From an uncultured Mariniplasma sp. (GTDB taxonomy: Bacteria; Bacillota_I; Bacilli_A; Acholeplasmatales; Acholeplasmataceae), in the NCBI GenBank assembly GCA_964587475.1, contig CAZPLF010000006.1, forward strand, positions 1 through 64,000: DNA of 64,000 bases, read 5' to 3'. A model generated the notes under the pieces. That model did no database searches and was not told where the DNA came from. It saw only the letters and a list, made by a program, of their open reading frames with translations. Shown piece after piece: positions 7,994 through 35,220 of this stretch. The position numbers and the translations under genes are program-made. Each line of letters opens with the position of its first letter. Positions within the stretch are counted from its first letter, which is position 1.

Positions 7994-8727
7994 ACATATT
8001 AGTTGTCAATGATGATGGATATCAAGCTGAAGGCTTAGGTATCTTGGTTAGAGCACTTACACCTTTTGGAAACGTTTATGTTTCAGCACCTAAAGATCAT
8101 CAAAGTGCTAAAAGTCATGCGATTACCATTAAAAGTCGTATCGAAACTTTTATGACGGAACCAATTTTTGGTTCAGCAGGAACTTTGGTTGTCGATGGAA
8201 CACCGGCAGATGCAACCCGTTTGGGTCTCAAGGTTTTTAATGTTGATTTTGATTTGGTCGTATCCGGAATCAATTATGGACAAAACATTGCATCTGATAT
8301 TTTATATTCAGGAACCGTCGCTGCAGCACTTGAAGCAAAAATCCTTGGTGTTGATGCAATTGCTATCTCAGCACACAATACACATTTGCCCTATTTATAT
8401 GACGAAACAATTAAATTGATGGATGAAATCATAGAAGCAAAACTCTATGAAGGTCCTGGCATTTTAAATGTGAATTTTCCAAGAGATACATTTGCAAGAC
8501 CAAAAGGTGTAAAAATTACACAAATGGGACAAAGATTGCAGCATGCAGAATTTATAAAAAGTGAGCGTCCCGATGTTTATCACATCAAATCCAGCATTAT
8601 TAGTTATCAGGAAAACGTTGATTCAGATGTTGCTGCATTTGATGAAGGTTTTGTATCTATAACACCACTTAATATCAATCGTACTGATTTTCAACGAATT
8701 AATGAGATTCTTAAGACAGAAAAATAG
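7990..8727 (+). CDS. surE: 5'/3'-nucleotidase SurE
   Basis: N-terminal ILVVNDDG signature. 245 aa. Confidence 0.85.
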   Translation: MNILVVNDDGYQAEGLGILVRALTPFGNVYVSAPKDHQSAKSHAITIKSRIETFMTEPIFGSAGTLVVDGTPADATRLGLKVFNVDFDLVVSGINYGQNIASDILYSGTVAAALEAKILGVDAIAISAHNTHLPYLYDETIKLMDEIIEAKLYEGPGILNVNFPRDTFARPKGVKITQMGQRLQHAEFIKSERPDVYHIKSSIISYQENVDSDVAAFDEGFVSITPLNINRTDFQRINEILKTEK

Positions 8728-10417: not shown

Positions 10418-11125
10418 ATGCCAACACCGCATATTGATTTAGAAAATAAAGATTTAATAGCAAAAACAGTTTTAATGCCAGGAGATCCACTGAGAGCCAA
10501 GTATATTGCTGATAACTTCTTAACAAAAGTTGTTCAAATAAACGATGTCAGAAACATGTGGGGGTATACAGGTTATTTTGGTAAAAAGAAAGTTACCGTC
10601 ATGGGTTCTGGAATGGGTATGCCAAGTATTGGTATATACAGTTATGAACTGTTTAAGTTTTATGACGTTGAAAATATAATACGTATTGGATCATGTGGTG
10701 CTTATAGTGATGAATTAAAACTATATGATGTTGTCCTAGTTGAACAAGCATATTCTGAATCAAGTTATGCTAAGACAATGGGTGTTTCATCAAGAAAGAT
10801 TTTACCTGCAAATAAAACCCTTAATAATAAATTGATAAAAGCTGCAGAAAAAATCAATGTTAAATTACATCCTTCAGTTGTTCATTCTTCAGATGTTTTT
10901 TATCGATTGAAGAGTGACGAGTATAAAGAAATACATGAAAAATATGGCGCACAAGCCGTTGAAATGGAGTCATTTGCCTTATTTGCTAATGCTAAAGCAT
11001 TACATAAACGCGCAGCTTGTCTTCTAACCGTATCGGATTCCTTGGTGACACATGAGGCAACCTCATCACAGGAAAGACAAGAAGCATTTACAAAAATGAT
11101 GGAAGTTGCTTTAAATAGTATCTAA
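10418..11125 (+). CDS. deoD: Purine nucleoside phosphorylase, DeoD-type
   Basis: PNP family-1 motifs (MPGDPLRAKYIA, VMGSGMGMPS). 235 aa. Confidence 0.9.
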   Translation: MPTPHIDLENKDLIAKTVLMPGDPLRAKYIADNFLTKVVQINDVRNMWGYTGYFGKKKVTVMGSGMGMPSIGIYSYELFKFYDVENIIRIGSCGAYSDELKLYDVVLVEQAYSESSYAKTMGVSSRKILPANKTLNNKLIKAAEKINVKLHPSVVHSSDVFYRLKSDEYKEIHEKYGAQAVEMESFALFANAKALHKRAACLLTVSDSLVTHEATSSQERQEAFTKMMEVALNSI

Positions 11126-12324
11126 TGCTACTCATTAAAAATGATTTCAAAACGATACAATTCGCTGTCTACTTTACAGACTTAGACGAAGATGAAACAC
11201 GTGTGTATCGTTTTTTGTTGCCTAGATTATTAACATCACATACGAACCAATTACTCAATAAAACAATGATGAATGAAAAACTAGAAGATCTATATGGTGC
11301 CTACTTCAAATCACGCGTTGAACGTGTAGGCAATTTTTCTGTTGTAAGCATTATCTTAACCATTGTGGATCCTTTAATAGTTGAAGATGAACAGTTGATG
11401 AATCAAGCAATTGAACTTTTTAATCAAGTTCTTTACGATCATGATACTTTTGATAAGGATCTTTTCCTTGAAGAAAAAAGAATGGTGATTGAACAATGGG
11501 AAACGCTTCATGATAAGAAAAGATTGTATGCACAAACTAAATTTTATGAACATTTCTTCAAAGGTGATGCCTACGGAACACCTCTTTCAGGTAGTCTAGA
11601 GGACATAAAAAAATTAAACGTACAAAAACTAGAAAAATATTATAAAGAAGTATTTTTGAAAAATACAAAGAAATTCGTGGTAAATGGTAGAGTGAGTCGG
11701 GAAGATCAACTTAAACTTGAAAAAATGATGGCTCATGATTTAGAGAATAAGCATCCATTTGTAACATCATTTAGACCTGTAAGACCGCTACTTTTTATCG
11801 AAGAAGAAACTCAAATGAAGCAAGCAATTCTTAAACTGGGTTATCATTTTCCTATTTTCAGAGAAGATGAACACTACCATGCAGCTATTTTGTTAGATAC
11901 CATTTTAGGAGGTTATCCAGAAAGCAGGCTTTTTCAAGAGATTCGAGAAAAAGATGGATTGTGTTATGATATATCTTCTAACTATGATTACTATAAAGGC
12001 GTCATCATGATTAGTAGTGGTGTTGATCTTATTCAAAAAGATATGGCTTTGGAAGCAATCAAAAATTTAGTTTTAGACATGATTCTCAAAGGCGTTTCAG
12101 AAGAAGAGTTATTGCATGCAAAAGCATATTATACACATCAAATAATGAGTAGCCTTGACAATCAGTCTTTTTTAACAAAAAGAGCATTCATACGCGAGTT
12201 ACTCAATCATGATGAAACCATTGAAGAAAGACTCAATGCACTAAATAAAGTAACAATTGCTGATATTAAGATGCTTCTTAATATGATTACTTTAGATACT
12301 GTTTATGTACTTCACGGAAACTAA
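11125..12324 (+). CDS. M16-family peptidase, non-catalytic subunit (no HxxEH)
   Basis: 399 aa pitrilysin-like fold without the zinc-binding motif. Its likely partner is at 23263. Confidence 0.65.
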   Translation: MLLIKNDFKTIQFAVYFTDLDEDETRVYRFLLPRLLTSHTNQLLNKTMMNEKLEDLYGAYFKSRVERVGNFSVVSIILTIVDPLIVEDEQLMNQAIELFNQVLYDHDTFDKDLFLEEKRMVIEQWETLHDKKRLYAQTKFYEHFFKGDAYGTPLSGSLEDIKKLNVQKLEKYYKEVFLKNTKKFVVNGRVSREDQLKLEKMMAHDLENKHPFVTSFRPVRPLLFIEEETQMKQAILKLGYHFPIFREDEHYHAAILLDTILGGYPESRLFQEIREKDGLCYDISSNYDYYKGVIMISSGVDLIQKDMALEAIKNLVLDMILKGVSEEELLHAKAYYTHQIMSSLDNQSFLTKRAFIRELLNHDETIEERLNALNKVTIADIKMLLNMITLDTVYVLHGN

Positions 12325-12356: not shown

Positions 12357-12392
12357 ACTTTCATACTCTATTTGGTATGAAGGTTTTTTTAT
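12357..12392 (+). terminator. Rho-independent terminator
   Basis: CUUUCAUAC-loop-GUAUGAAGG hairpin followed by UUUUUUU. Confidence 0.7.
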
Positions 12393-12462: not shown

Positions 12463-12490
12463 TTGACAATACTGTGAAAAATGATATAAT
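12463..12490 (+). promoter_or_regulatory. Sigma-A type promoter for the BMC locus
   Basis: TTGACA at 12463-12468, a 16-nt spacer, and an extended -10 TGATATAAT at 12482-12490. Confidence 0.6.
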
Positions 12491-12554
12491 TAAGCCAAAT
12501 ATAGACGTGAATATATGAAAGAAAATTACTCAATACAACAAAGAGGTGCGATTA

Positions 12555-13580
12555 GTGATAAAAAATAAAGATATCGCGATACGATCTGGGGTTTCTGTTG
12601 CTACTGTTTCTAGAGTGATGAATCAAAGTGGTTATGTCAAAGATGAAACTAAGGATTTGGTGCTCAAAGCATTCAATGAACTGGTCAATGACGATCAGCT
12701 TTTAGTTCAATCGATAGCAAATGGAAAAACCAATCTCATAGGTGTTGTTGTTCCGGATATTTCAAATCCTTTTTTTGGTGAGGTCATCAAGGGTATATCA
12801 AGCATAGCTGATCAACACTCCGCTAGTTTGTTAGTCTGCAACACAGAAGAACAACTAGATAAGGAAATTAAGTATCTAGAACTGTTTAAGACAAATAACA
12901 TCAAAGGCTTAATTATCACTCCAAAAACAGACCAAGGTGTTTATAATTCAAAATACTTATATCAGCTTGAAGGATTAGGGGTTCCTATTGTCTTATTAGA
13001 TCGCGGTATCAATTTATCTCATTTTAATTCGGTTTTCGTCAACAATACATCAGGTTCTTTTGATGCAATCAATGCTTTGATTAATGAAGGCCACAAAAAT
13101 ATTGCAATAATTTCAGGACCGATGTCATCCAAACCAGGACGTGAAAGATTCTATGGTTATGAAAACGCCTTGAAAAACAATAATCTACCAGTGAATAAAG
13201 ATTATATCTTCTTTGGTGATTTTAAGCTACAAAGTGGTTATGAAATAACCAAAAAAATTCTGAATCTTGAACATAGACCGACTGCTATTTTTGCAGCAAA
13301 CAATATGATGGCTCAAGGATGTATAAAAGCTTTAGTTGAAAACAAATTATCAATTCCAAAAGATATGTCATTTATTAGCTTCGATGATGTTGACATGTTT
13401 GAAATTATGAATCTCAATATTTCAACAGTATCAAGACCAACTGAATTAATGGGTATTGTCGCTGCTGAAATGCTATTTGAACTAGTAGATCATAAACAAG
13501 AGAAGCATACATCCATTAAGGAAGTATTGCTAGAAACCAAACTTGTTTTAAGAGGTTCAGAAAAATTAGTTAAAAAATAA
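12555..13580 (+). CDS. LacI-family transcriptional regulator (HTH plus periplasmic-binding-fold sugar sensor)
   Basis: N-terminal HTH IAIRSGVSVATVSRVMNQ. GTG start at 12555 follows RBS AGAGG. Confidence 0.85.
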   Translation: MIKNKDIAIRSGVSVATVSRVMNQSGYVKDETKDLVLKAFNELVNDDQLLVQSIANGKTNLIGVVVPDISNPFFGEVIKGISSIADQHSASLLVCNTEEQLDKEIKYLELFKTNNIKGLIITPKTDQGVYNSKYLYQLEGLGVPIVLLDRGINLSHFNSVFVNNTSGSFDAINALINEGHKNIAIISGPMSSKPGRERFYGYENALKNNNLPVNKDYIFFGDFKLQSGYEITKKILNLEHRPTAIFAANNMMAQGCIKALVENKLSIPKDMSFISFDDVDMFEIMNLNISTVSRPTELMGIVAAEMLFELVDHKQEKHTSIKEVLLETKLVLRGSEKLVKK

Positions 13581-13592
13581 GGAGTAAACAAT

Positions 13593-14411
13593 ATGGAAAT
13601 TAACGACATCAAACAAATCGTGAGAGATGAACTCGTTACGAGCATTCTAGAATCTCAAGAATTCTTGATTGTGGGTAATTGGAAAATGAATAAAACAAAA
13701 GTTGAAGTCAATGCTTTTTTAGACGATATTGCTAATCATGATTTTGGTGATAAAAATACGGTTGTCATTCTACCTCCAAGTGCTTATCTTTATCTATTTG
13801 AAGATAAACTGAGATTTAGTAAAGTACTATACGGAACTCAAAATTTCTATCCAAAAGAAAACGGTGCATTTACAGGAGAATTTTCAGTAGACATGATGAA
13901 AGATTTTGGATGTAAGTTTGCACTTGCAGGACATTCCGAAAGAAGAGATATATTTATGGAATGTGATGCATTTACTGCTAAAAAAGTGAGAAGTTGTTTA
14001 GAAAATCAAATTAAACCAATTTTATGCATTGGTGAAAATCTAGATCAAAGACAAACAACAGATTATAAACAGTTTTTAATTGATCAACTCAAAAGATCTT
14101 TGGACCGCGTTGAAGGAAAAGATTTAAGTCAAGTCATTATTGCCTACGAACCAATTTGGGCGATCGGTACTGGAGAGACAGCAACACCAGAACAAGTTGA
14201 AGAAATACATATGCATTTAAGAAAGTTTTTAGTTCAACAATATGGATCTGAAATTGGAAAAGAAATTCCTTTATTATATGGTGGAAGTGTTAATGCCAAA
14301 AATGTTAAGGAGCTTGCACTTGCAGAAAGTGTTTCTGGATTCTTAATTGGTGGAGCAAGCTTAAACGCTCAAACATTCATTGAGATAAGCAATATCCTAA
14401 ACGGAAAATAA
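13593..14411 (+). CDS. tpiA: Triosephosphate isomerase paralog with an N-terminal extension of about 21 aa
   Basis: GNWKMN, LAGHSERR and YEPIWAIGTG motifs. There are 27 residues before GNWKMN, against about 6 in housekeeping TpiA. Confidence 0.88.
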   Translation: MEINDIKQIVRDELVTSILESQEFLIVGNWKMNKTKVEVNAFLDDIANHDFGDKNTVVILPPSAYLYLFEDKLRFSKVLYGTQNFYPKENGAFTGEFSVDMMKDFGCKFALAGHSERRDIFMECDAFTAKKVRSCLENQIKPILCIGENLDQRQTTDYKQFLIDQLKRSLDRVEGKDLSQVIIAYEPIWAIGTGETATPEQVEEIHMHLRKFLVQQYGSEIGKEIPLLYGGSVNAKNVKELALAESVSGFLIGGASLNAQTFIEISNILNGK

Positions 14412-14451
14412 TAGTTGTTCATTAAAAAATCCTATAGAAAGGTAGAAGAAT

Positions 14452-15315
14452 ATGGAAATCAAAAATATCGATCGACTTGTCGACAAAGTCGCAGCAAATA
14501 TTTTAGATAAACTGGATTTAAAAACTACATATGGCAACATCAATCATAAATCCTGTTTCATTCTAATACCAAATATGGGACTGGGGATGAAAGAATATAT
14601 CGAATACATCATTGAACACTATCAAGGATACGAACTTTATTTAGCATCAAGAGAAAATGGAGCGAATGTTGGAGATTTTAAAAACATCAAAACACTTGAA
14701 TTTGATATGAAAAACCAAAAATTCATTCATCTCTTAGATTCAGTTGAAAATATCATTGTCTTAGGATTGAAAATCAATCAAATGAAATCTATCATTAAAA
14801 CTGATGACGAAGATGATGTGAATCAACTCATCCTAGAGGGACTTCTCGCAAATAAACAAGTCAACGTGATGATGAACGCAAATGAACATATCTTTAGTAA
14901 ACTAAAAAATATTGTTACTGATTTAAGACATATGGGAGTTTATGTAACTAACATCCATCAAGTGAAAGCTTCTTCAATTGTTTCAAATGTAGAAATTGAA
15001 AAGACACATCATTTAAATTCTCAACAGGAACCAGATAGATCATGGGCGATAGCAACAAAGATTGCACCTGAAAAATTATATACAGCATCTTCTAAGTTGG
15101 AAAAAGAATGTCAACTCAATCCTTTTAAAGAATCAAACGATGTACTCATACCATCAAAAAATGAATTGATTACAGAAAGTTATGTGTTAAAACTTAAAGG
15201 CAGAGGAGTTAGAACAATGATTCTTGATAAGAAACATTTAATTACGCCACTTGCAAAAGATAAATTAAGAGAATATAAAATAGATATCAAATATATAGAG
15301 GAGGCAAAATCATGA
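14452..15315 (+). CDS. Hypothetical BMC-locus protein with an amphipathic N-terminus
   Basis: 287 aa with no recognisable motif. N-terminus NIDRLVDKVAANILDKL. Sits between the TIM and aldehyde dehydrogenase genes. Confidence 0.55.
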   Translation: MEIKNIDRLVDKVAANILDKLDLKTTYGNINHKSCFILIPNMGLGMKEYIEYIIEHYQGYELYLASRENGANVGDFKNIKTLEFDMKNQKFIHLLDSVENIIVLGLKINQMKSIIKTDDEDDVNQLILEGLLANKQVNVMMNANEHIFSKLKNIVTDLRHMGVYVTNIHQVKASSIVSNVEIEKTHHLNSQQEPDRSWAIATKIAPEKLYTASSKLEKECQLNPFKESNDVLIPSKNELITESYVLKLKGRGVRTMILDKKHLITPLAKDKLREYKIDIKYIEEAKS

Positions 15316-16736
15316 GCACACAAGATCTAATTGAAAGACTTAGAGCAGAAATGGAAGAAAAATATGGAAATAAGTCAACAAATACAACAACACCTCGTGA
15401 AGCTATCAATGTAGGAAGACTTGGATGTTATGAAAATGTATTGGATGCTATTGCAGCAGCAAAAGCATCACAAGAACAATTGATGGAACTCTCCATGAAA
15501 AAGCGTAACGAAATCATTGCAGCGATGAGAAAAGCAAGTTTAGATAATGCTGAAAAACTAGCAGTGATGGCACATGAAGAAACCGGATTTGGTAGAGTTG
15601 CTGATAAAATTATCAAAAATATTTTAGCAGCAGAAAAAACACCAGGCACTGAAGATCTCAGATCTCGCGCATACACTGGTGATGATGGTATGACTTTAGT
15701 TGAAATGGCACCATTCGGAGTTATTGGCTCTATTACGCCATCTACTAACCCTAGTTCAACAATCATTAATAACAGTATTAGCATGGTTGCAGCAGGTAAT
15801 GGTGTCGTATTCAATCCTCATCCAAGTGCTAAAAAAGTGACGCTTGAGACGATTTCTATCCTCAATCAAGCCATCCATAAAGTGGGTGGACCTAAAGAAC
15901 TTTTGACTGCACCCATTGATCCAACCATGGAAACCAGCAAGGTCATCATGACGCATAAAGACATTAGAATGTTAGCTGTTACTGGTGGTGAAGCAGTTGT
16001 TGAAGTTGCTATGAGAAGCGGTAAGAAAGTCATTGCTGCTGGTCCAGGTAATCCTCCAGTGATTGTTGATGAAACAGCAAATATTAAGAAAGCTGCTAAT
16101 GATATCCTAAGAGGTTCAAGCTTTGATAACAATATCTTGTGTACTGCAGAAAAAGAAGCCTTTATTCTTAATAGCGTATTTAATGAGCTTAGAAATGAAA
16201 TGATTAGACTTGGAGCTTATGAACTAAAGCACCATGAAATAGATATCGTCACAAAAGAAGTGTTCATCAAGAATAATCAAGGTGAAACAGTAGTTAACAG
16301 AAAATATGTTGGCAAAAATGCTTCAGAGATTTTAAAAGCGTGTAAGATTCCAGTGAATCAAGATGTTAAGTTGATTCTTGCTGAAGTTGATGATTCTCAT
16401 CCATTTGTAAATATAGAAATGTTGATGCCAGTATTGGCATTAGTCAGAGTCTATTCGGTTGATGAAGCTATTGAAAAAGCAGTAGCTGCTGAAGCTGGAA
16501 GACATCACTCAGCCATGATGCATTCAGAAAGCGTTACGAACCTTACAAAAGCCGCACGCGCATTAGACACAACAATTTTTGTGAAAAATGCACCATCATT
16601 TGCTGGATTAGGTATCGAAGGAGAAGGTTTCACAACCTTAACCATTGCAACCCCAACAGGTGAAGGTTTAACCTCAGCTAGAAGTTTTACAAGAATTAGA
16701 AGATGTACTTTATCAGGCGGATTTAGAATTATTTAA
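15312..16736 (+). CDS. CoA-acylating aldehyde dehydrogenase (EutE/PduP family)
   Basis: ALDH fold with catalytic ILCTAEKE. The N-terminal peptide DLIERLRAEMEE resembles an encapsulation peptide. Confidence 0.85.
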   Translation: MSTQDLIERLRAEMEEKYGNKSTNTTTPREAINVGRLGCYENVLDAIAAAKASQEQLMELSMKKRNEIIAAMRKASLDNAEKLAVMAHEETGFGRVADKIIKNILAAEKTPGTEDLRSRAYTGDDGMTLVEMAPFGVIGSITPSTNPSSTIINNSISMVAAGNGVVFNPHPSAKKVTLETISILNQAIHKVGGPKELLTAPIDPTMETSKVIMTHKDIRMLAVTGGEAVVEVAMRSGKKVIAAGPGNPPVIVDETANIKKAANDILRGSSFDNNILCTAEKEAFILNSVFNELRNEMIRLGAYELKHHEIDIVTKEVFIKNNQGETVVNRKYVGKNASEILKACKIPVNQDVKLILAEVDDSHPFVNIEMLMPVLALVRVYSVDEAIEKAVAAEAGRHHSAMMHSESVTNLTKAARALDTTIFVKNAPSFAGLGIEGEGFTTLTIATPTGEGLTSARSFTRIRRCTLSGGFRII

Positions 16737-16757
16737 TGAAAAATAGGAGTGGATAAT

Positions 16758-18071
16758 ATGTCTATTGATTATATCCAAAGAATCAAAGAAATAGGGGTTG
16801 TCGGAGCTGGTGGTGCTGGTTTTCCAACACACGTCAAATTAAACAGTAAAGCTAAAATTGTCATTATCAATGGTGCTGAATGCGAGCCTCTGCTTAGAGT
16901 TGATCAACAATTGATGGAATTTTATCCCCAAGATGTTATAGCTGGATTAAAAATTGCAATGGCTCAAACTGGAGCATCTCAAGGTGTGATTGGCTTAAAG
17001 GGAAAGTATAAAACTGCAATCTTGAAACTCGAAGAACTGATTAAAGATGAAAGTTCAATAGAGATCAAGATTATAGGTGACTATTATCCCGCTGGCGATG
17101 AACAACAACTTGTTTATGAAGTCACCAAGAGAGTTGTTCCACTCATGGGTATTCCACTTGATGTGGGTGCTGTTGTCATTAATGTACTAACAGCAATTAA
17201 TATTGCGCGCAATAAGCCAGTTACTGAAAGAGTTGTTACAGTCACTGGAGTAGTGAAGAAACCACAAACGTTAATTGTTCCTGTGGGAACACCATTTCGT
17301 GAATTGATTGAAGCATGTGAAGGCCCTACTGACGAAAAGAACTTTAGTATCGTTGTTGGAGGACCTATGATGGGAAAAGTTGAATCCAATTGGGATACAC
17401 CCGTATCAAAAGTAACTGGTGGAATCATTGTCCTGCCAAATGATCAATATGTGATTGTTAAAAAGACAAGAAAAACCGAAACCGATCTTCAGTTAACAAA
17501 AGCGATTTGTTGCCAGTGTTCATTATGTACCGAGATGTGTCCAAGGAATATCATCGGACTCAATACAGAACCCCATAAGGTTATGAGAGGACTTGCCAAT
17601 GAAGATCCATCGACATTAGGTGCTATCGGTTCAGTCGTGTCTTGTTGTGACTGTGGATTATGCAGCATCTATGCATGTCCAATGGATTTAGATCCAGGTA
17701 AAATAACGAATTTGGTTAAGCAGAGCTTACTTAGAAAAGGTGCTAAAACCGAAAAGGTCATTCCTTATGAAGTTGATCCCTTAAGAGATAGCAAGAAGGT
17801 CCCAACAAAAAGGCTTATTGCAAGACTAGAATTATTAGATTATAATGTTGCAGCTCCCTTGAATTTCAATATATTTGAGACAAAGGCTGTAAAGGTTTTA
17901 TTAAAGCAACATATTGGTGTTGATGCAACACCAATTAAAAAGATTGGTGATACTGTTACGAAAGGTACATTAATTGCAACTTGTTATGATAAATTAGGTG
18001 CTAATGTTCATGCGAGCATCGATGGGCGCATTACAGATATTACTGATAAGTATATAGAAATACATGCATAA
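16758..18071 (+). CDS. PduS/RnfC-family flavin and 2x[4Fe-4S] oxidoreductase
   Basis: GAGGAGFPT nucleotide-binding site. Two Cys clusters: CCQCSLCTEMCP and CCDCGLCSIYACP. Confidence 0.8.
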   Translation: MSIDYIQRIKEIGVVGAGGAGFPTHVKLNSKAKIVIINGAECEPLLRVDQQLMEFYPQDVIAGLKIAMAQTGASQGVIGLKGKYKTAILKLEELIKDESSIEIKIIGDYYPAGDEQQLVYEVTKRVVPLMGIPLDVGAVVINVLTAINIARNKPVTERVVTVTGVVKKPQTLIVPVGTPFRELIEACEGPTDEKNFSIVVGGPMMGKVESNWDTPVSKVTGGIIVLPNDQYVIVKKTRKTETDLQLTKAICCQCSLCTEMCPRNIIGLNTEPHKVMRGLANEDPSTLGAIGSVVSCCDCGLCSIYACPMDLDPGKITNLVKQSLLRKGAKTEKVIPYEVDPLRDSKKVPTKRLIARLELLDYNVAAPLNFNIFETKAVKVLLKQHIGVDATPIKKIGDTVTKGTLIATCYDKLGANVHASIDGRITDITDKYIEIHA

Positions 18072-18085
18072 GGAGGAACTATGTT

Positions 18086-18631
18086 ATGGAAGCATTAGGC
18101 ATGCTCGAACTAAATAGTATTGCACGAGGTATTGAAGCTGGAGATACTGCGATTAAAACTGCTAATGTTAAATTAATTGGTGCTTATGCAGCTTGTCCTG
18201 GTAAATTTGTTGTGATGATAAGAGGTGAGGTTGCTGCTGTAAAAAGTGCCATTCAAGCTGGAGCTATCATCGCAGGTAAATCACTGATTAAAGATATCGT
18301 GATAGCAAATATACATGATCAAGTATTTTCAGCATTAAACTGTACAACAGAAATTGATCCAAAAGGTGCAGTTGGTATTATAGAAACCTATTCACTCGCA
18401 ACAGCTGTCTTAATATCTGATGCTGCCGTTAAGGCGGCAAGCGTTGAGTTATTGGAGATTAGATTAGGACGTGGACTTGGTGGAAAAGCATTTACCGTTT
18501 TGACTGGTGATGTGAGTAGCGTCAAAGCCGCAGTTGAAGCAGCTGTTATTGCCAGTAAAAATGATGGACTTTTAGCCCATACAGCAGTAATTCCAAGAAT
18601 TAGCAAGGAAATGTTACAAACATTGATTTAA
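18086..18631 (+). CDS. Tandem-domain BMC shell protein (BMC-T, PduT-like)
   Basis: Two BMC domains in 181 aa. Cys in AACPGKF sits at the position of the PduT pore 4Fe-4S ligand. Confidence 0.85.
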
Positions 18632-18656
18632 AAATAAAATAAGGGAGAATAAGAAA

Positions 18657-18932
18657 ATGGTAGTTGAAGCATTAGGATTAATCGAAACAAGAGGATTTGT
18701 AGGAGCTATTGAAGCTGCAGATGCAATGGTTAAAGCAGCAAATGTTAAACTTGTTGGAAAAGAAAAATCAGGTAGTGGATTAGTCGCAATTATGGTTCGT
18801 GGTGATGTTGGTGCCGTCAAAGCAGCAACTGAAGCTGGTGCTGAAGCAGCACGTAGAGTTGGAGAATTAGTATCAGTTCATGTGATCCCTAGACCACATG
18901 CAGATGTAGAAGACTTGCTTAGTAAGCTTTAA
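18657..18932 (+). CDS. BMC-H hexameric shell protein (PduA/EutM-like) 1
   Basis: [11 protein letters not shown]...[12 protein letters not shown] canonical BMC domain. Confidence 0.95.
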
Positions 18933-18963
18933 AAAAATAGATTAGAATAGGAGAATTAAAATT

Positions 18964-19236
18964 ATGAAAGAAGCATTAGGATTAATTGAAACAAGAGGAT
19001 TTGTTGCAGCAATTGAAGCTGCAGATGCAATGGTCAAAGCAGCAAATGTTAAACTAATTGGCAGAGAAAAATCAGGTAGTGGATTAGTTGCTATGATGGT
19101 TCGTGGAGATGTCGGTGCCGTCAAGGCAGCAACAGAAGCTGGCGCTGAAGCAGCGCGTAGAGTTGGAGAATTAGTATCAGTTCATGTGATCCCAAGACCA
19201 CATGCAGATGTTGAAGAATTACTCAACAATCTATAA
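18964..19236 (+). CDS. BMC-H hexameric shell protein 2
   Basis: Near-identical paralog of the previous gene. Confidence 0.95.
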
Positions 19237-19251
19237 AAAAGGAGAAAGAAA

Positions 19252-19560
19252 ATGAAAGAAGCATTAGGATTAATCGAAACTAGAGGTTTTGTCGCAGCAA
19301 TTGAAGCAGCAGACGCAATGGTTAAGGCTGCAAATGTAAGACTTATCGGAAAAGAAAAGTCAGGTAGTGGATTAGTAGCTATGATGGTTCGTGGTGATGT
19401 CGGTGCCGTCAAGGCAGCAACTGAAGCTGGCGCTGAAGCAGCTCGCAGAGTTGGCGAATTAGTATCAGTACATGTTATTCCAAGTCCACATGCAGATGTA
19501 GAAGAATTATTAAGTGCGCTTAAAGAATCACCTGCAAAAGTCGTCAAAGTAGCAAAATAA
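19252..19560 (+). CDS. BMC-H hexameric shell protein 3
   Basis: Paralog with a short C-terminal tail [13 protein letters not shown]. Confidence 0.95.
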
Positions 19561-19610
19561 TTTTTTGACAATAATTTGTGAATAAATCTATACAGAAAGG
19601 AGAAAACAAA

Positions 19611-19880
19611 ATGGTAGAAGCATTAGGTTTGATCGAAACTAGAGGATTTGTTAGTGCCGTCGAAGCTGCAGACGCAATGGTCAAAGCTGCAAATGTAAGA
19701 CTCATTGGAAAAGAAAAATCAGGCAGTGGGTTAGTCGCAGTTATGGTTCGTGGTGATGTAGGTGCCGTCAAGGCAGCTACTCAAGCTGGAGCTGAAGCAG
19801 CTCGCCGTGTCGGTGAGCTTGTTTCCGTACATGTTATTCCAAGACCACATGCAGATGTTGAAGAATTATTAAAGAAATAA
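19611..19880 (+). CDS. BMC-H hexameric shell protein 4
   Basis: Paralog. RBS AGGAG is 9 nt upstream of ATG 19611. The ORF-track start at 19578 is too long. Confidence 0.93.
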
Positions 19881-19889
19881 AAAGATAAA

Positions 19890-20675
19890 GTGAAAAGAGC
19901 TGAAATTATGGAATTAGATAAATTAATAGAAAGAATTGCTAATGAAATCTATAGCAAAATCGCAAAAGAAGACAATGGTTCATCAAGCATTAAAGTAAAT
20001 GACAATAGTGATCTTGCTAAAATGATTGATCATACATTGTTGAAACCAGAAGCAACAGAAGAAGATATTAAGAAGGTTTGTGAAGAAGCATTACAATATA
20101 AGTTTAAATCTGTTTGTGTAAACACACACTATGTTGCTTTAGTTTCACGTCTTTTGGCTGGATCTAGTGTTTTAACTTGTGGTGTTGTAGGATTCCCATT
20201 AGGTGCGATGACTACAAGAGCTAAAGTAGATGAAACTAGTGATGCGATTAAGAGTGGTGCACATGAAATCGATATGGTTATCAATATTGGTGCACTTAAA
20301 TCTGGCAATTGGAATATTGTCAAAAGTGATATTGAAGGTGTTGTCAATGTAGCAAGAGGTCGGGCGATAGTTAAAGTTATTTTGGAAACATCATTATTAA
20401 CTGATGAAGAAAAAATAAGAGCTTGTACAATTGCTAAAATGGCTGGTGCTGATTTTGTCAAAACCTCAACTGGATTTAATAAAGGTGGAGCAACAATCGA
20501 AGATATTACATTAATGCGTAAAGTTGTAGGACCACATATGGGTGTTAAAGCTTCTGGTGGTGTTCGTGATACTGAAACTGCGAGAGCAATGATTGCTGCT
20601 GGTGCAACAAGAATTGGAACAAGTTCAGGAATAAATATCATTAAGGGCTCTAAGCCTGCGACTGGTACTTATTAA
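19890..20675 (+). CDS. deoC: Deoxyribose-phosphate aldolase with an N-terminal extension of about 38 aa (SPU-type signature enzyme)
   Basis: Aligns along the full length with class-I DERA ([28 protein letters not shown]). Carries an extra N-terminal segment [19 protein letters not shown] plus a linker. The start may instead be ATG 19908. Confidence 0.9.
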
Positions 20676-20697
20676 TACCTAGAAAAGAGGAAATTAT

Positions 20698-21018
20698 ATG
20701 TATGCTGCGAGAATTATTGGAACTGTTGTGTGTACGCAAAAGGATCCAAGTATGAACAGTTTAAAGATGCAGGTTGTACAACCTGTTAACATCATTACCT
20801 TTAAAGATGAGGGTAAACCTGCAGTAGCAATTGATGCTGTTGGAGCTGGTGATTCAGAAATTGTTTTAGTTGTAGCTGGTAGTTCTGCAAGACTCACTGA
20901 ACTTACACAAAATAAACCTACTGATGCAACGATTATGGCAATTGTTGATTATGTCGATATTGAAGGTAAAAATGTCTTCAGTAAAAATAAAAAACAACCA
21001 GAAGTAGGTTCAAAATAA
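20698..21018 (+). CDS. BMC-P pentameric vertex protein (EutN/PduN/CcmL) 1
   Basis: 106 aa EutN fold. Opens with RIIGTVV. Confidence 0.85.
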   Translation: MYAARIIGTVVCTQKDPSMNSLKMQVVQPVNIITFKDEGKPAVAIDAVGAGDSEIVLVVAGSSARLTELTQNKPTDATIMAIVDYVDIEGKNVFSKNKKQPEVGSK

Positions 21019-21091
21019 ATTAAGACAAATCATCAGATTCAAAATGAAGATTAATATGCAATTTTTGCATATTATATAAGGAGATGTAACA

Positions 21092-21553
21092 ATGAAAATT
21101 GCTATTGGTTGTGACCATGGTGGTTATGAATTAAAGGAAAAAGCAAAAAAATATATTACAGAAGAATTAAAAATGCAAGTACAAGATTTTGGCACCTATA
21201 ATAAAAATAGATGTGATTATCCAGACTATGCATTTTTGGTTGCTTCTGCAGTTTCACTTAAAAAATGTGATTTCGGCATCATGATTGATGGCGCTGGTAT
21301 TGGTTCTTCCATGATGGCAAACAAAGTACCTGGCGTACTTGCTGCATGTGCAAATGAAGTCTATACAGCACATAATAGTCGCGAACATAACGGAGCTAAC
21401 GTTTTAACATTGGGTAGCTATGTTATAGGTGAAGGTGTCGCAAAAGAAATCATTAAAACATTCCTAAGTACCAAATTTGAAGGTGAAAGAAATTTACAAC
21501 GTGTAAAGAGTATTTTAGAAATCGAAAAAAGAATTTTAAGCAATAGGGAGTGA
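21092..21553 (+). CDS. rpiB: Ribose-5-phosphate isomerase B / LacAB-family sugar-phosphate isomerase
   Basis: MKIAIGCDHGGYELKE N-terminus. 153 aa. Confidence 0.88.
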   Translation: MKIAIGCDHGGYELKEKAKKYITEELKMQVQDFGTYNKNRCDYPDYAFLVASAVSLKKCDFGIMIDGAGIGSSMMANKVPGVLAACANEVYTAHNSREHNGANVLTLGSYVIGEGVAKEIIKTFLSTKFEGERNLQRVKSILEIEKRILSNRE

Positions 21554-21557
21554 TACT

Positions 21558-21830
21558 ATGCAAATGGCAAAAGTGATCGGTACTGTGACATCAACAGTCA
21601 AGATCAAAGATATTAAAGGTGTATCTTTACTAGTGATTCAACCTGTTAATTCAAAGTATGAATCACTAGGTGCACCTATTGTTGCCGGAGATAATTACGG
21701 TGCAGGTGTTGGTGAATATGTTTTCTATTCGAAAAGTAAAGAAGGAGCAATGAATTTACCGATTCCTACTTCATGTGTTGATGCTGGGATAGTTGGTATC
21801 ATTGATTATGTCTTTAGAAAAGATGAATAA
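21558..21830 (+). CDS. BMC-P vertex protein 2
   Basis: 90 aa EutN fold. Confidence 0.82.
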   Translation: MQMAKVIGTVTSTVKIKDIKGVSLLVIQPVNSKYESLGAPIVAGDNYGAGVGEYVFYSKSKEGAMNLPIPTSCVDAGIVGIIDYVFRKDE

Positions 21831-21851
21831 CATTAAGAATGAGGTGTTATT

Positions 21852-22148
21852 ATGCAACTAGCAATAGTCGTAGGGAATTTGGTTTCAACACATAAAAATG
21901 AATTAATCAAAGGAAAAAAACTTTTGTTTGTCCAACCTATTGATGAAAAATTGATCCCATTTGGTGATGAAATGCTTGCTGTTGATGCTGTAGGAGCAGG
22001 CATAGGTGATGTCGTTGTCATTCTGCATGAAGGTACGTCAGCAAGACAGGTTACCCATGCAGAAAGCAAATACTCACCAATCGAATTGTGTATTGCAGGC
22101 ATTGTCGATTCGATTAAAACTGAAGGTAGCTATAAAACTTTTGATTAG
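21852..22148 (+). CDS. BMC-P vertex protein 3
   Basis: 98 aa EutN fold. Confidence 0.82.
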   Translation: MQLAIVVGNLVSTHKNELIKGKKLLFVQPIDEKLIPFGDEMLAVDAVGAGIGDVVVILHEGTSARQVTHAESKYSPIELCIAGIVDSIKTEGSYKTFD

Positions 22149-22160
22149 TAGGATGATAAA

Positions 22161-23162
22161 ATGAACCTTTTAGATCATATAATTGAACAAGCAAAAAAGA
22201 ATATTAAAACGATTGTTCTTCCCGAAGGGAAGGATCAAAGAACCATTACCGCTGCAAGAAAACTTCAAAGTCAGAATATTGTAAATGTGATTGTTTTAAT
22301 TAATCGTGCTGATATGAATGATGAGACCACAAAGTTGCAAAGTGAAGGTATCAAAGTCATTGTTTTGGAACAATCTGAACAATTGAATTTGTACAGTTCA
22401 CAATTATACGAATTAAGAAAAGAAAAAGGAATGACAAAAGAAGAAGCTGATAAGCTTGTTCTCAATACTGTTTATCATGGCGTGATGATGGTTAAGAACC
22501 AAGATGCTGATGGTATGGTTGCTGGTGCAATTACTGCATCAGGTGATGTCTTAAGACCAGCACTTCAAATTCTTAAAACGGCAGAAAACGTAAAGATTGT
22601 GTCGTCGTTTTTCTTAATGGAAATTCCAAATTCCAAACATGTAATGAATAAAGTGTTTGCTTTTTCGGATTGTGGTCTAGTGGTTAATCCAAACGCAGAT
22701 GAATTAGCGGAAATTGCAATTCAAACTGCAAAATCATTTGCATATCTAACACATGAAGATCCTCGAGTAGCTATGCTTTCCTATTCAACTTATGGAAGTG
22801 CAAAAGGAGAGCTTGTTGATAAGGTTGTTACTGCAACAAAAAATGTACAATCGAAATATCCTAATCTTAAAATTGATGGCGAATTACAACTAGATGCTGC
22901 AATTGTACCTTCTGTTGCTCAATTAAAAGCACCATTAAGTAGAGTTGCAGGATATGCTAATGTATTGATATTTCCCGATTTGCAATCTGGAAATATAGGA
23001 TATAAATTAGTAGAGAGATTGGCTAATGCAGCAGCTTATGGACCAATCACTCAAGGATTGAGCAAACCTGTCAATGATCTTTCAAGAGGATGTTCAGCAG
23101 AAGATATTGTTGCTGTTGTGGCAATTACTGCTCTTCAAACACAATCAGGTATAGTTCATTAA
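22161..23162 (+). CDS. pta: Phosphate acetyltransferase (Pta/EutD type)
   Basis: 333 aa PTA_PTB fold. Motifs IVLPEGKDQR, AFSDCG, DLSRGCSAED. Confidence 0.88.
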   Translation: MNLLDHIIEQAKKNIKTIVLPEGKDQRTITAARKLQSQNIVNVIVLINRADMNDETTKLQSEGIKVIVLEQSEQLNLYSSQLYELRKEKGMTKEEADKLVLNTVYHGVMMVKNQDADGMVAGAITASGDVLRPALQILKTAENVKIVSSFFLMEIPNSKHVMNKVFAFSDCGLVVNPNADELAEIAIQTAKSFAYLTHEDPRVAMLSYSTYGSAKGELVDKVVTATKNVQSKYPNLKIDGELQLDAAIVPSVAQLKAPLSRVAGYANVLIFPDLQSGNIGYKLVERLANAAAYGPITQGLSKPVNDLSRGCSAEDIVAVVAITALQTQSGIVH

Positions 23163-23262: not shown

Positions 23263-24537
23263 ATGATAAAAAAAACATTTGAACGCTTTAATGAATCACT
23301 TTATATAATCAAACTGAGAAATGGTATGCAAGTTCATATATTGCCTAAAGAAGATCCTTATTTCACGACATATGTTGAAGCAAGTGTTCCTTTTGGAGCT
23401 CTAGATTTATCATATAAAACTGATGATAAATTAATCAATACACCATATGGAACAGCACACTTCTTAGAACATAAAATATTTGCAATGCCTGATGGAGATG
23501 CATTTGCGCATTTTTCTGCTTTGGGTGTTGATGCAAATGCTATGACCTCATATGATCAAACGTCTTATTTATTTATTGCTACTCAAAATATGATTTCTGC
23601 TTTAGAGTATCTATTTGAAATGATTGACACGCCTTTTTTTACAAATGAAAATGTCGATCAAGAGAAACGCATTATCGCAGAAGAACTAAAGATGTATCTA
23701 GATGATCCGAATGTTGTCATGCATAACCAACTAATAGAGATGATGTATCATGCTCACCCTCTAAAGTATGATATTGGAGGAACGCTTGAATCAATTATGG
23801 ATATTACTCCAGAAATTCTTAAAGATGTCTATGATAAATTTTATAATCCCTCAAATCGGTTAATTACAATTGCTGGTAAAGTAGATATTAAAGAACTACA
23901 AATATTCTTTAAAAACTATGATTTAAAAAATCCAGTAAAATATAAAAAAGTAAAGACTATTTATCCGAAAGAACCTATGCGATTATACCAAAAATCAATG
24001 ATAGAAATCAAAGATGTTGGAATTGATAAGCTGATGCTTGGTATTAAACTTAGTCCAAGTAAGTCAAATCAAAGAGATCAAGTGAAAAAAGAAATGGCAG
24101 TTTCAATGCTTTTGAATATTCTTTTAGGCCCATCTTCTCAAACTTATGCAAAATTACTTGAAGATAAGTTGATCAATCAAAGTTTTTATGTCAACACAAC
24201 ATTTGAAAAAAAAGCAGAAAATATTATTGTATTTGCTGAAACGAAAAGAATTTATAAACTGAAGAAAATCTTAATCGATATTCTAACTGTTCAAGCTTTG
24301 AGTTTGGTAACTCAAGAAGCTTTTGATCGGTATAAGAAAGTTTATTTAGGCCAATTCATATTTGCTCTAAACAATCTAGAAACAAAAGCGTATCTTTATG
24401 GTAAATATTTCCATATGGGATCTTCTTTGTTTGATGTTGTCGATTTACTTAAAGAAATAGAATATGAAGACGTACTTCAAGAACTTAAATCAATACAAAG
24501 AAAATATATTGCTGTACTAATACATAAAAAGGCTTAA
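23263..24537 (+). CDS. M16-family zinc peptidase, catalytic subunit
   Basis: HFLEH inverted zincin motif. 424 aa. Confidence 0.75.
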   Translation: MIKKTFERFNESLYIIKLRNGMQVHILPKEDPYFTTYVEASVPFGALDLSYKTDDKLINTPYGTAHFLEHKIFAMPDGDAFAHFSALGVDANAMTSYDQTSYLFIATQNMISALEYLFEMIDTPFFTNENVDQEKRIIAEELKMYLDDPNVVMHNQLIEMMYHAHPLKYDIGGTLESIMDITPEILKDVYDKFYNPSNRLITIAGKVDIKELQIFFKNYDLKNPVKYKKVKTIYPKEPMRLYQKSMIEIKDVGIDKLMLGIKLSPSKSNQRDQVKKEMAVSMLLNILLGPSSQTYAKLLEDKLINQSFYVNTTFEKKAENIIVFAETKRIYKLKKILIDILTVQALSLVTQEAFDRYKKVYLGQFIFALNNLETKAYLYGKYFHMGSSLFDVVDLLKEIEYEDVLQELKSIQRKYIAVLIHKKA

Positions 24538-32795: not shown

Positions 32796-34091
32796 ATGCA
32801 TATTGTAGACTTAATCACCAAAAAGAGAGATGGCAAAGCTTTAAGTAAAAACGAAATAGAATTTATCATCAAAGGATATACAAATGGTAAAATTCCTGAT
32901 TATCAAATCAGTGCTTTATTAATGGCTATTTATTTTCAAAATATGAATGATGAGGAATCAACATATCTAGCATTAGCGATGAGAGATTCAGGTGATTCCA
33001 TTGATTTATCAGAAATTCCAGGAATCAAAGTTGACAAACATTCAACAGGTGGTGTTGGTGACAAGGTGACACTTGTTTTAGGACCACTATTAGCATGTTT
33101 AGGCGTGAAATTCGCTAAAATGAGCGGCAGAGGTCTTGGCCATACTGGCGGTACCATTGATAAACTTGAAAGCATACCAGGATTTAAGGTTGTTTTGCCA
33201 GTTGAAGTATTCATTCAACAGGTTAAAGATATAGGTATTGCTATTGTAGGACAAAGTGGAGATGTTGCACCTTCTGATAAGAAGCTTTACGCACTAAGAG
33301 ATGTTACGGCAACCGTAGATACAATTCCACTCATTGCTTCAAGTATTATGTCAAAGAAACTTGCAAGTGGTGCTGATGCCATTGTTTTAGATGTTAAAGT
33401 TGGGCATGGTGCCTTCATGAAAACAGAGGAAGAAGCAGTTAAATTAGCAAAACTTATGGTTAGCATCGGAAAACTTGCAGGCAAAAAAGTAACAGCGATT
33501 CTAACAGGAATGGATGAACCTCTAGGACATAAGATTGGTAATGCTCTAGAAGTTTATGAAGCCATTGAAACTTTGAATGGCCAAGGTCCTAAAGATCTAG
33601 TTGCTGTTACAGTTGAAATTGGTGCACATCTTCTACTAGATGCTCAGATTGAAACAGATTTTGAGATCGCTAAGATTAGATTACAAGAGGCACTTCAAAA
33701 TGGAACTGCTTATCAGAAGTTTCTTGAACTTGTAGAAGCTCAAGGAGGAGACGTTAATAGCCTTCTTGAACCAAGTTTGCTATTGTCTAAGGATACTGTA
33801 GAGGTTTTATCTGAAAAAGAAGGATTTATTATGGATATTAACGCTATGGATATCGGTAAGGCTGCAATGAGATTGGGTGCTGGAAGAGAAACCAAAGAAG
33901 ATGAAGTCTATCTTGACGTTGGCCTTGATTTGCATAAAAAGATAGGCTCATACGTTAAAAAAGGTGAATCTATTGCTACGCTATATGTTAGAGAAAAAGG
34001 TGTTAAAGAGGCTAAACAACTCATTCTAGATGCGATAACTATAGGCAAAGAACACAAGAAAATTGTTTTGATAAAACAAACCATTAAATAA
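32796..34091 (+). CDS. pdp: Pyrimidine-nucleoside (thymidine) phosphorylase
   Basis: Glycosyl-transferase family 3 motif KHSTGGVGDK. 431 aa. Confidence 0.9.
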   Translation: MHIVDLITKKRDGKALSKNEIEFIIKGYTNGKIPDYQISALLMAIYFQNMNDEESTYLALAMRDSGDSIDLSEIPGIKVDKHSTGGVGDKVTLVLGPLLACLGVKFAKMSGRGLGHTGGTIDKLESIPGFKVVLPVEVFIQQVKDIGIAIVGQSGDVAPSDKKLYALRDVTATVDTIPLIASSIMSKKLASGADAIVLDVKVGHGAFMKTEEEAVKLAKLMVSIGKLAGKKVTAILTGMDEPLGHKIGNALEVYEAIETLNGQGPKDLVAVTVEIGAHLLLDAQIETDFEIAKIRLQEALQNGTAYQKFLELVEAQGGDVNSLLEPSLLLSKDTVEVLSEKEGFIMDINAMDIGKAAMRLGAGRETKEDEVYLDVGLDLHKKIGSYVKKGESIATLYVREKGVKEAKQLILDAITIGKEHKKIVLIKQTIK

Positions 34092-34101
34092 GGGTGAAAA
34101 G

Positions 34102-35220
34102 ATGATCATGCATCCTGATTATGACAATTCGATATTGAATGTGACTGCAACCATTCTTAAAAATTACCATGCACCATCGATTTATTCTTCAATTCAAGAA
34201 TTAGATGAGGCCTTGGATAATCATCCAAAGCACCTGATTCTTGTCTTACTTGATGGCATGGGTATAAATATCATCAATCGCTATTTGCAACCTGATGATT
34301 TTTTAAGAAAGCAAGTCAAAAAGACAATTACTTCAGTGTTTCCACCAACGACTGTTGCGGCAACCAATGCTGTCTTGTCAGGATTACCACCCTATAGTAG
34401 TGGTTATTTGGGATGGGTTCAATACTTTAAGAAAGAGAAAACAAATCAAATTGTTTTTCTAAATCAAGATTTCTATGATTTGTCTAGAAAATTTGACGAT
34501 ATTCTTAGAGATAAATACTTGAGATATCCGACACTCTATGAGCAAATTCAAATGCATAGTCCTAAAGTAAAAACCTATGAATTATTCCCTAGTTTCAGGC
34601 TAAATGGATTTGAAACCTTTGAGAAACAAGTTGATTATGCTATAGAACTGACCCATAAAGATGAAGAAAATTTCAGTTATATTTATTGGACACAACCCGA
34701 CTTCATACAACATGATTTTGGAACAGAATCCGAACATACTGAAAAAATACTGAAATCTTTAAATGTACAGGCAGAAAGATTATCAAAAGAAGTGGGTCAA
34801 GATACAATCATTACGATTATTGCTGATCATGGTTTGACAAATGTTATCGGCATCGATTTATTTGATGATCAAGAAATTATGAGTTTGTTAAGAAGAAAGC
34901 CGTCTATAGAACCTAGAGCAACAAACTTCTTCATCAAAACGTTCATGAAAAAGAAGTTTAAAAATGTATTTAATGAAAAATATGGACATGAGTTCATACT
35001 TCATACAAAAAAAGAACTCTATGCATCAGGTCTACTGGGATATGGAGTCAAACATCCATTACTTGATGATTTTATTGGTGATTATGTTGCAATATCTATA
35101 GGTAATAAAATGTTTAATTTTAAAGAGCATTCTGCATTTCTTGGGCATCATGCTGGTTTGACAAAAGAAGAGATGGAAGTACCACTTATTATCTTTTATA
35201 AAGATAAAGACAACCAATAA
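34102..35220 (+). CDS. Alkaline-phosphatase-superfamily metalloenzyme (type I phosphodiesterase/NPP or phosphomutase family)
   Basis: LVLLDGMG followed by TSVFPPTTVAATNAVLSGLPP, which has a nucleophile Thr in an NPP-like motif. ADHG near the C-terminus. Confidence 0.6.
   Translation: MIMHPDYDNSILNVTATILKNYHAPSIYSSIQELDEALDNHPKHLILVLLDGMGINIINRYLQPDDFLRKQVKKTITSVFPPTTVAATNAVLSGLPPYSSGYLGWVQYFKKEKTNQIVFLNQDFYDLSRKFDDILRDKYLRYPTLYEQIQMHSPKVKTYELFPSFRLNGFETFEKQVDYAIELTHKDEENFSYIYWTQPDFIQHDFGTESEHTEKILKSLNVQAERLSKEVGQDTIITIIADHGLTNVIGIDLFDDQEIMSLLRRKPSIEPRATNFFIKTFMKKKFKNVFNEKYGHEFILHTKKELYASGLLGYGVKHPLLDDFIGDYVAISIGNKMFNFKEHSAFLGHHAGLTKEEMEVPLIIFYKDKDNQ

Follow-up and report, generated by a model that had tools for sequence, protein, structure and literature searches.

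A predicted encapsulation peptide on the deoxyribose-phosphate aldolase of a sugar-phosphate-utilisation microcompartment operon from an uncultured Mariniplasma sp.

Introduction

Sugar-phosphate-utilisation (SPU) bacterial microcompartments (BMCs) are encoded by loci defined by a pfam01791 deoxyribose-phosphate aldolase (DERA) together with a pfam02502 RpiB-type isomerase (RPI) (PMC8217296), and their shell set includes a triplet of BMC-P proteins (PMC11585597). Dwyer, Sutter & Kerfeld (2024, Commun Biol, PMC11585597) reported that all SPU DERAs bear an amphipathic N-terminal extension of the encapsulation peptide (EP) type, which non-BMC DERAs lack, and proposed DERA as the universal SPU signature enzyme. 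In the same study full-length SPU6 DERA was insoluble unless its extension was removed, and DERA and RPI formed a complex. An EP is described as an amphipathic helix of 15-20 residues joined to its domain by a poorly conserved, hydrophilic linker (Kinney 2012; Aussignargues et al. 2015, PMC4594438). Here we analyse the DERA gene (deoC) in a stretch of 64,000 nucleotides from an uncultured Mariniplasma sp. (contig CAZPLF010000006.1, positions 1 to 64,000; hereafter the window). We put the probability at about 0.8 that this DERA is the aldehyde-generating signature enzyme of an SPU microcompartment and that its first ~34 residues are an EP that recruits it into the organelle, an assignment made from sequence and comparative evidence. 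The EP extension of SPU DERA is already known from the 2024 publication (PMC11585597), and our analysis adds no new principle to it.

Like the SPU DERAs described there, the window DERA is a pfam01791 enzyme with an Asp/Lys/Lys active site and an N-terminal amphipathic helix, and its gene lies in a locus with a CoA-acylating aldehyde dehydrogenase (AldDh), RPI, PduS, triosephosphate isomerase (TPI) and a BMC-P triplet. The extension of the SPU6 (Chloroflexi) DERA is ~70 residues long and consists of a ~25-30-residue helix and two beta strands (PMC11585597). That of the window, in contrast, has 34 aa with one 17-residue helix, a 16-residue linker and no strands, which is the form of a classical short EP; related long DERA forms, with a Cys-rich motif and AGADR, occur in other loci that we surveyed. 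The window RPI also differs from the SPU6 RPI in lacking an EP, whereas the latter has its own EP and a ~75-residue linker (PMC11585597). With the EPs of PduP, PduD, EutC, EutE and CcmN the DERA peptide shares a terminal helix of 15-20 residues, a hydrophilic and poorly conserved linker, its absence from non-BMC homologues and a position on signature or core enzymes (PMC4594438). Unlike those validated EPs it sits on a different cargo enzyme and is predicted from sequence, and its 16-aa linker is at the short end when set against the 22-91 aa given for signature enzymes (PMC4594438).

Housekeeping class I DERAs (B. subtilis/Bacillus-type DeoC) have a core 60-70% identical to that of the window with the same invariant residues, but they carry 6-15 residues before the IDHT motif and have no shell genes nearby. 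The acidic and hydrophobic residues of the DERA peptide, spaced i, i+3/4, i+7, presumably resemble the pattern in PduD and EutC. A further group of relatives is formed by the satellite aldolases of HO-BMC genomes, which belong to pfam01791 and have an EP-like N-terminal extension (Sutter et al. 2021, PMC8217296). Unlike these satellites, the window DERA gene lies in the middle of a main shell locus.

Results

Identity of the DERA gene and its start codon

The mechanical open reading frame (ORF) at 19890-20675 (+) comprises 261 aa counted from a GTG. An earlier reading of the DNA letters, hereafter the original prediction, had quoted an extension peptide from this ORF, and we found that peptide in it. 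On its profile matches the product is a genuine DeoC, the class I deoxyribose-phosphate aldolase. For the 255-aa product of ATG 19908, the NCBIfam deoC equivalog TIGR00126 gave a score of 288 bits, above its cutoff of 117, and covered residues 36-245; Pfam PF01791 matched residues 44-251 of the 261-aa GTG form. The catalytic residues are intact, D122, K185 and K214 occupying columns that do not vary in either of two homologue alignments (27 and 76 sequences). By motif matching to the E. coli sequence, we take them to be the equivalents of D102, K167 and K201. These E. coli positions are given as the DERA active-site residues in PMC11585597. The closest named relatives are Mycoplasmatota, and tblastn found no second, housekeeping deoC in the 64-kb window.

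Judged by comparison with homologues, translation almost certainly starts at ATG 19908. Among database homologues, the ~60 closest (73-97% identity) nearly all have 253-257 aa and begin with MEL or MEI. In addition, the ATG and a Shine-Dalgarno (SD)-like (G/A)AAAGAG 8 nt upstream of it are kept in the window and in four related loci of our survey (L081, L083, L084 and L085), while the codon at the position of GTG 19890 is TTG or ACG in L081 and L085. Because of these homologue lengths and because the GTG is not conserved, GTG 19890 was rejected as the start. Counted from ATG 19908, the IDHT motif begins at residue 40. Since DERAs with an ordinary N-terminus have 6-15 residues ahead of IDHT, the net extension is about 33 aa. 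The original prediction was therefore right that the window DERA has an extension which ordinary DERAs lack, and it slightly overestimated the size at 38-44 aa. For ordinary DERAs it had named ~5 residues before IDHT, where we count 6-15. The parts of the gene are as follows.

19890..19907 (+): in-frame stretch before the ATG, probably 5' untranslated region, with SD-like AAAAGAG at 19893-19899, 8 nt before the ATG
19908..20675 (+): coding sequence of DERA (DeoC), taking the most likely start, 255 aa plus stop; TIGR00126, PF01791
19911..19961 (+): predicted encapsulation-peptide helix, residues 2-18; from AlphaFold2 (AF2), hydrophobic moment, entropy and the nonsynonymous-to-synonymous ratio (pN/pS)
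19962..20009 (+): disordered hydrophilic linker, residues 19-34, Asn/Ser/Gly-rich, ~16 aa; from AF2, entropy and pN/pS
20010..20672 (+): catalytic TIM-barrel core, residues 35-255; AF2 confidence (predicted local distance difference test, pLDDT) >90
20271-20273, 20460-20462 and 20547-20549 (+): active-site columns Asp122, Schiff-base Lys185 and Lys214

A constrained helix and a relaxed linker

AF2 was run on a 76-sequence alignment and gave a model with a mean pLDDT of 90.4. In this model residues 2-18 form a helix of 17 residues (pLDDT 73-77), residues 19-32 are non-regular (pLDDT ~52, and <50 at residues 24-26), and a confident TIM barrel follows. The hydrophobic face of the helix is made up of L3, L6, I7, I10, I14 and I18. 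We found that the hydrophobic moment of residues 3-20 (0.61) was the highest of any 18-residue segment in DERA, and that the value for residues 2-19 (0.58) was reached by 0.9% of 10,000 shuffled sequences (p 0.009). On the Eisenberg scale the DERA N-terminus ranked third among 93 window ORFs in N-terminal amphipathicity.

Across 68 extension-bearing homologues the column entropy was lowest in the core (0.77 bits) and highest in the linker (2.82), with the helix between them (1.17), and L6, I7 and I10 were nearly invariant. Homologues from Mycoplasmatota, Lachnospiraceae, Synergistales and Paenibacillus share the helix. The linker differs among homologues in sequence and in length, the distance to IDHT ranging from 37 to 64 residues. 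In five close-relative sequences (pS ~0.57), the helix codons had a pN/pS of 0.125, close to the 0.139 of the core, and the linker codons one of 0.41. By these ratios purifying selection acts on the helix as strongly as on the catalytic core and is relaxed in the linker; the values therefore indicate that the extension is translated and that its helix is constrained like the enzyme itself.

Association of the extension with shell genes

The scan covered one genome per species and gave 80 DERA loci, each with at most 10 kb of flanking sequence; 77 of these loci were analysable. Shell genes were located with hidden Markov models (HMMs) built from the window BMC-H and BMC-P proteins, and the longest possible N-terminus was taken from stop-to-stop frames, independently of annotation. 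None of the 30 loci with <=20 residues before IDHT had shell genes within 10 kb. All 18 shell-adjacent DERAs, on the other hand, had room for >=34 residues (Fisher p = 4e-5 over the 77 loci), and all 18 carried a motif of the amphipathic helix, for example (D/E)xLI(E/D)xI(T/A)xEV. Within the genus Paenibacillus, the extension of P. alba, which has a BMC locus, is 64 aa long, whereas three other, shell-less Paenibacillus DERAs have <=15 residues before IDHT. In a fourth (L080), 31 residues are possible from a TTG and 23 from an ATG, with low amphipathicity.

Short database homologues had been considered as non-BMC controls and were dropped, as the closest one annotated without an extension (P0108, Anoxybacter fermentans, CP016379.1) proved to lie in an SPU locus (L082, 9212-10654). 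It is annotated with 217 aa from MIDHT; its open frame has 480 aa, begins MIWLNLETLIQETARKVLADM, and runs through an EP-like helix, a ~200-aa domain, a Cys-rich motif and SGADR into the DERA core. The annotated start was thus wrong, and we therefore switched the controls to stop-to-stop ORF analysis of the 80 genomic loci. This case reproduces the published warning that automated start calls miss DERA extensions (PMC11585597). The ~200-aa insert had no significant similarity to the PduM-like protein encoded in the window (E = 0.66), and the Anoxybacter locus does contain PduL. A narrow HMM of the Mycoplasmatota-type EP was also dropped as a classifier because it missed SPU6-type helices, and extension length was used instead.

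Taken at the level of sequence, the DERA extension has every feature by which a BMC encapsulation peptide is defined in PMC4594438. It has the terminal amphipathic helix (AF2 helix 2-18; moment 0.58-0.61) and the hydrophilic, poorly conserved linker (residues 19-34; pLDDT ~52, 2.82 bits, pN/pS 0.41), and it is present on BMC homologues and absent from non-BMC ones, with 29 loci that allow a long N-terminus and have no shell genes nearby being ambiguous in this last respect. The original prediction had described an amphipathic helix followed by a low-complexity linker, and both parts were borne out, the secondary-structure check that it proposed showing an N-terminus that is helical (AF2) as well as amphipathic (hydrophobic moment). 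In the comparison with non-BMC DERAs the extension was absent from 30/30 ordinary N-termini, as anticipated; EP-like extensions occurred in some loci without shell genes within 10 kb. The broader claim of the original prediction, that this is the cargo-targeting architecture of BMCs on the signature enzyme, has bioinformatic support from the EP features, the SPU operon, the 77-locus association and PMC11585597.

A side observation concerns the C-terminal part of BMC-type DERAs. The homologues P0063-P0107 (alignment columns ~280-310) have an insertion with CxxCGxCxxxCP, which is 4Fe-4S ferredoxin-like and in some of them has a precomputed PF12838 match. Its hosts are Lachnospiraceae, Extibacter, Synergistales and related metagenomic clades; the window DERA and its Mycoplasmatota relatives are without it.

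The SPU operon

The DERA gene lies within a co-directional, operon-like block at 12546-23162 (+). The elements of this block and of the region just upstream are listed here.

12357-12384: terminator-like hairpin, upstream of the sigma-70 consensus
12463..12490 (+): sigma-70 promoter consensus, 12/12 matches with extended -10; a consensus match only
12546..13580 (+): LacI-family regulator, first gene; same position in L081, L084 and L085
13593..14411 (+): TPI; Pfam TIM match from residue 25
14452..15315 (+): PduM/eut_hyp-like protein, 287 aa; TIGR02536 1.2e-12, PduM 0.006, both below cutoffs
15312..16736 (+): CoA-acylating AldDh; PF00171 from residue 38, NF011927 636 bits
16749..18071 (+): PduS-like flavin/Fe-S protein; Complex1_51K, SLBB, Fer4, RnfC_N
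18086..18631 (+): tandem-domain BMC-T, PduT-like, with ACPGKF Cys motif; PF00936 twice, TIGR02526 3e-38, below cutoff
18657..19880 (+): four tandem BMC-H genes (18657-18932, 18964-19236, 19252-19560 and 19578, or ATG 19611, to 19880); PF00936 for the first, the other three being near-identical paralogues
20698..21018 (+): BMC-P (EutN/CcmL) pentamer protein 1; PF03319
21092..21553 (+): RpiB-type isomerase; PF02502, TIGR01120 152 bits
21558..22148 (+): BMC-P 2 and 3 (21558-21830, 21852-22148), completing the triplet; PF03319
22161..23162 (+): classical phosphotransacetylase (Pta), last gene; PF01515, no extension

On this gene content the block at 12546-23162 is a complete SPU microcompartment operon. 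DERA and RpiB occur in one locus (PF01791, PF02502) with an acylating AldDh (PF00171, NF011927), and the shell set of BMC-H, at least one BMC-T(s) and a BMC-P triplet is represented by four BMC-H genes, one tandem BMC-T and three EutN/CcmL genes. The gene order, including Pta, is common to L081 (the complete Mycoplasmatota genome CP074575.1) and to L084 and L085 (metagenomic or metagenome-assembled-genome contigs), and L086, a Lachnospiraceae-type contig, has the same order minus RpiB. In all four of these loci Pta is conserved as the last gene. The window locus is without BMC-T(dp). SPU subtypes lacking BMC-T(dp) (SPU1/4/7) have a PduL-type phosphotransacylase in almost all loci (PMC11585597); here, instead, PduL (pfam06130/PF06130) had no match among the locus proteins, and the classical Pta stands at the 3' end.

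The PduT-like BMC-T (18086-18631) adjoins the PduS-like protein (16749-18071), and the pair suggests an electron conduit across the shell.

Other cargo candidates

EP-like N-termini were also found on the PduM-like protein, AldDh and TPI. As judged from their sequences these are candidate EPs, so that DERA would not be the sole carrier of such a peptide in the locus. The N-terminus of the PduM-like protein (EIKNIDRLVDKVAANILDKL) was the second most amphipathic in the window and the second-best match of the DERA-EP HMM (E = 0.005). This 287-aa protein had no Pfam match; relatives carry a gene of 229-266 aa at its position. AldDh, which begins MSTQDLIERLRAEMEEKYG, has a helix and a Thr/Asn-rich linker (MSTQDLIERLRAEMEEKYGNKSTNTTTPREA), and its DLIERLRAEM resembles a 10-residue stretch of the DERA helix. 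TPI has an N-terminal extension of ~22 aa (MEINDIKQIVRDELVTSILESQ) that leads straight into the fold without a linker. Both the AldDh and the TPI N-terminus extend beyond their family models, and the SPU4 TPI has been reported to bear an EP (PMC11585597).

RpiB, by contrast with these proteins, has no N-terminal extension, and its ORF cannot extend upstream. When aligned to the RpiB structures 3he8 and 1nn4 it has an Asp at the position of the catalytic Cys, reading IMIDGAGIG where the others read I(V/L)ICGTG. This agrees with the report that SPU RPI has lost its catalytic Cys (PMC11585597).

Discussion

The route by which the extension could act on DERA may be pictured as follows. We infer that the hydrophobic face of the helix would bind the lumenal side of shell proteins, similar helices on AldDh, the PduM-like protein and TPI, or both. 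DERA would thereby condense together with the core and be surrounded by the shell of BMC-H, BMC-T and BMC-P. Inside, it would cleave deoxyribose 5-phosphate, giving glyceraldehyde 3-phosphate plus acetaldehyde, and AldDh, with its candidate EP, would convert the acetaldehyde to acetyl-CoA. The absence of an EP from the RpiB-like protein, taken with the published DERA-RPI complex, suggests that this Cys-to-Asp protein is encapsulated by piggy-backing on DERA, which is probably how it enters.

Several points weigh against this assignment. Among the 77 loci, 29 permit a long N-terminus and yet have no shell genes within 10 kb. In several of them the upstream frame is spurious, an ATG lying only 9-16 codons ahead of IDHT; others clearly have an EP-like helix, in many cases accompanied by a Cys-rich motif and AGADR. 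In nine shell-less loci with a long, Cys-rich EP-like extension (L019, L021, L023, L031, L042, L050, L061, L064 and L067), which belong to Bryobacterales, Acidobacteriota, Chloroflexota and Planctomycetota, RpiB lies immediately upstream of DERA and the available flanks hold no BMC-H or BMC-P. On the side of the neighbouring proteins, the AldDh and TPI N-termini are only in the middle range of amphipathicity (Eisenberg moment). Furthermore, the published support for targeting of SPU DERA consists of bioinformatics and the insolubility phenotype, and the SPU6 DERA-RPI complex formed with an N-terminally truncated DERA, so that the extension is dispensable for the complex there (PMC11585597). 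As for the orphan RpiB-DERA pairs, they may be satellite cargo modules, and four of them (L019, L061, L064 and L067) look like the satellite aldolases of PMC8217296. Since extension-bearing DERAs thus occur away from shell genes in other phyla, the extension would mark BMC cargo and not necessarily adjacency to shell genes.

The orphan loci also bear on the idea that the helix serves a general oligomerising or regulatory purpose in one DERA subfamily, has nothing to do with microcompartments, and co-occurs with shells through shared ancestry only. In Acidobacteriota, Bryobacterales, Myxococcota, Oligoflexia and Calditrichaeota there are extension-bearing DERAs that have no shell genes within 10 kb, as this idea would lead one to expect. 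We nevertheless consider it very unlikely, as the association of extension and shell spans distant phyla and several extension architectures, no ordinary short DERA adjoined shell genes, and many of the orphans retain the SPU-specific RPI partner; satellite EP-bearing pfam01791 aldolases are, moreover, documented in genomes with BMCs elsewhere (PMC8217296). Still less credible is that the extension is an annotation artefact, with translation starting near the DLAKMIDHT core and a non-coding frame upstream. It is true that automated calls in some relatives begin at or near IDHT (P0108 with 217 aa, P0054 and P0062), and that no strong GGAGG Shine-Dalgarno precedes ATG 19908. However, the helix codons have a pN/pS like that of the catalytic core at a pS of 0.57, the ATG and AAAGAG 8 nt upstream of it are conserved, and no start codon (ATG, GTG or TTG) that has an SD lies immediately ahead of the core. 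The shortened calls of relatives are themselves mis-annotated, as the Anoxybacter ORF, extended to 480 aa with an EP-like start, illustrates.

A different role for a translated and constrained helix deserves more weight, although we hold it to be the less probable one. The helix could drive aggregation of cargo, with itself or with the helices of AldDh, the PduM-like protein and TPI, in place of direct shell binding, and another component, for example AldDh or the PduM-like protein, could then recruit the shell. Four locus proteins with similar N-terminal helices, the DLIERLRAEM stretch of AldDh and the appearance of the PduM-like protein in the DERA-EP HMM search would fit such a role, as would the insolubility of full-length SPU6 DERA owing to its N-terminal extension and the description of EPs as acting on other enzymes, the shell or both (PMC11585597). 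On the other hand, validated EPs of the same form (PduP, PduD, EutC and CcmN) bind shell proteins (PMC4594438). The two roles are compatible and not exclusive of each other, and the sequence does not separate them.

Returning to the reading of the extension as an EP that recruits DERA, we offer one extension of it tentatively, and regard it as rather doubtful. In SPU loci of the Mycoplasmatota/Lachnospiraceae type, the DERA peptide might be the sole handle for an EP-less, Cys-to-Asp RpiB, which would then act as a scaffold, in an organelle without internal PduL. The latter part is suggested because an EP-less Pta is conserved at the end of the operon and BMC-T(dp) is absent. If so, acetyl-CoA and CoA would have to cross a shell of BMC-H, PduT-like BMC-T and BMC-P only, which would depart from the usual model of internal CoA recycling in metabolosomes.

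In physiological terms, the operon encodes an SPU microcompartment, in which deoxyribose 5-phosphate from DNA and nucleosides would be channelled via acetaldehyde, in a low-GC, Mycoplasmatota-like host. Relatives in Izemoplasma have been reported as DNA degraders, and a microcompartment has been postulated for Ca. Izemoplasma HR2 (bioRxiv 10.1101/528695). The 17-residue helix and its short linker also make a small candidate tag with which cargo might be brought into SPU shells. Our results add weight to the view that DERAs of BMC loci are often annotated with a wrong start.

Genomic surroundings

Genes of nucleotide and nucleoside catabolism are present elsewhere in the window, namely the surE 5'/3'-nucleotidase, deoD (purine nucleoside phosphorylase) and pdp (pyrimidine nucleoside phosphorylase), at 7990-8727, 10418-11125 and 32796-34091 (+), respectively, and would fit a supply of deoxyribose phosphate. 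We identified no clear phosphopentomutase in the window, the product of 34102-35220 having only a weak PF01663 match.

Two M16-family peptidase genes, at 11125-12324 (+) and 23263-24537 (+), bracket the BMC block at 12546-23162. Paired M16-family peptidase genes are usually adjacent partners. In relatives the BMC block is flanked by other genes than in the window, and the bracketing together with these differing flanks would fit insertion of the block as a cassette. When base composition was inspected for horizontal acquisition, GC was 0.31-0.40 across the locus and 0.30-0.36 in the flanks, which is not distinctive.

Antisense ORFs of 60-170 aa lie over the BMC-H genes and deoC, at 18942-19771 (-) and 20129-20641 (-). 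They are rich in Ala, Pro, Thr and Ser and look like mirror frames of the coding strand, that is, artefacts and not genes.

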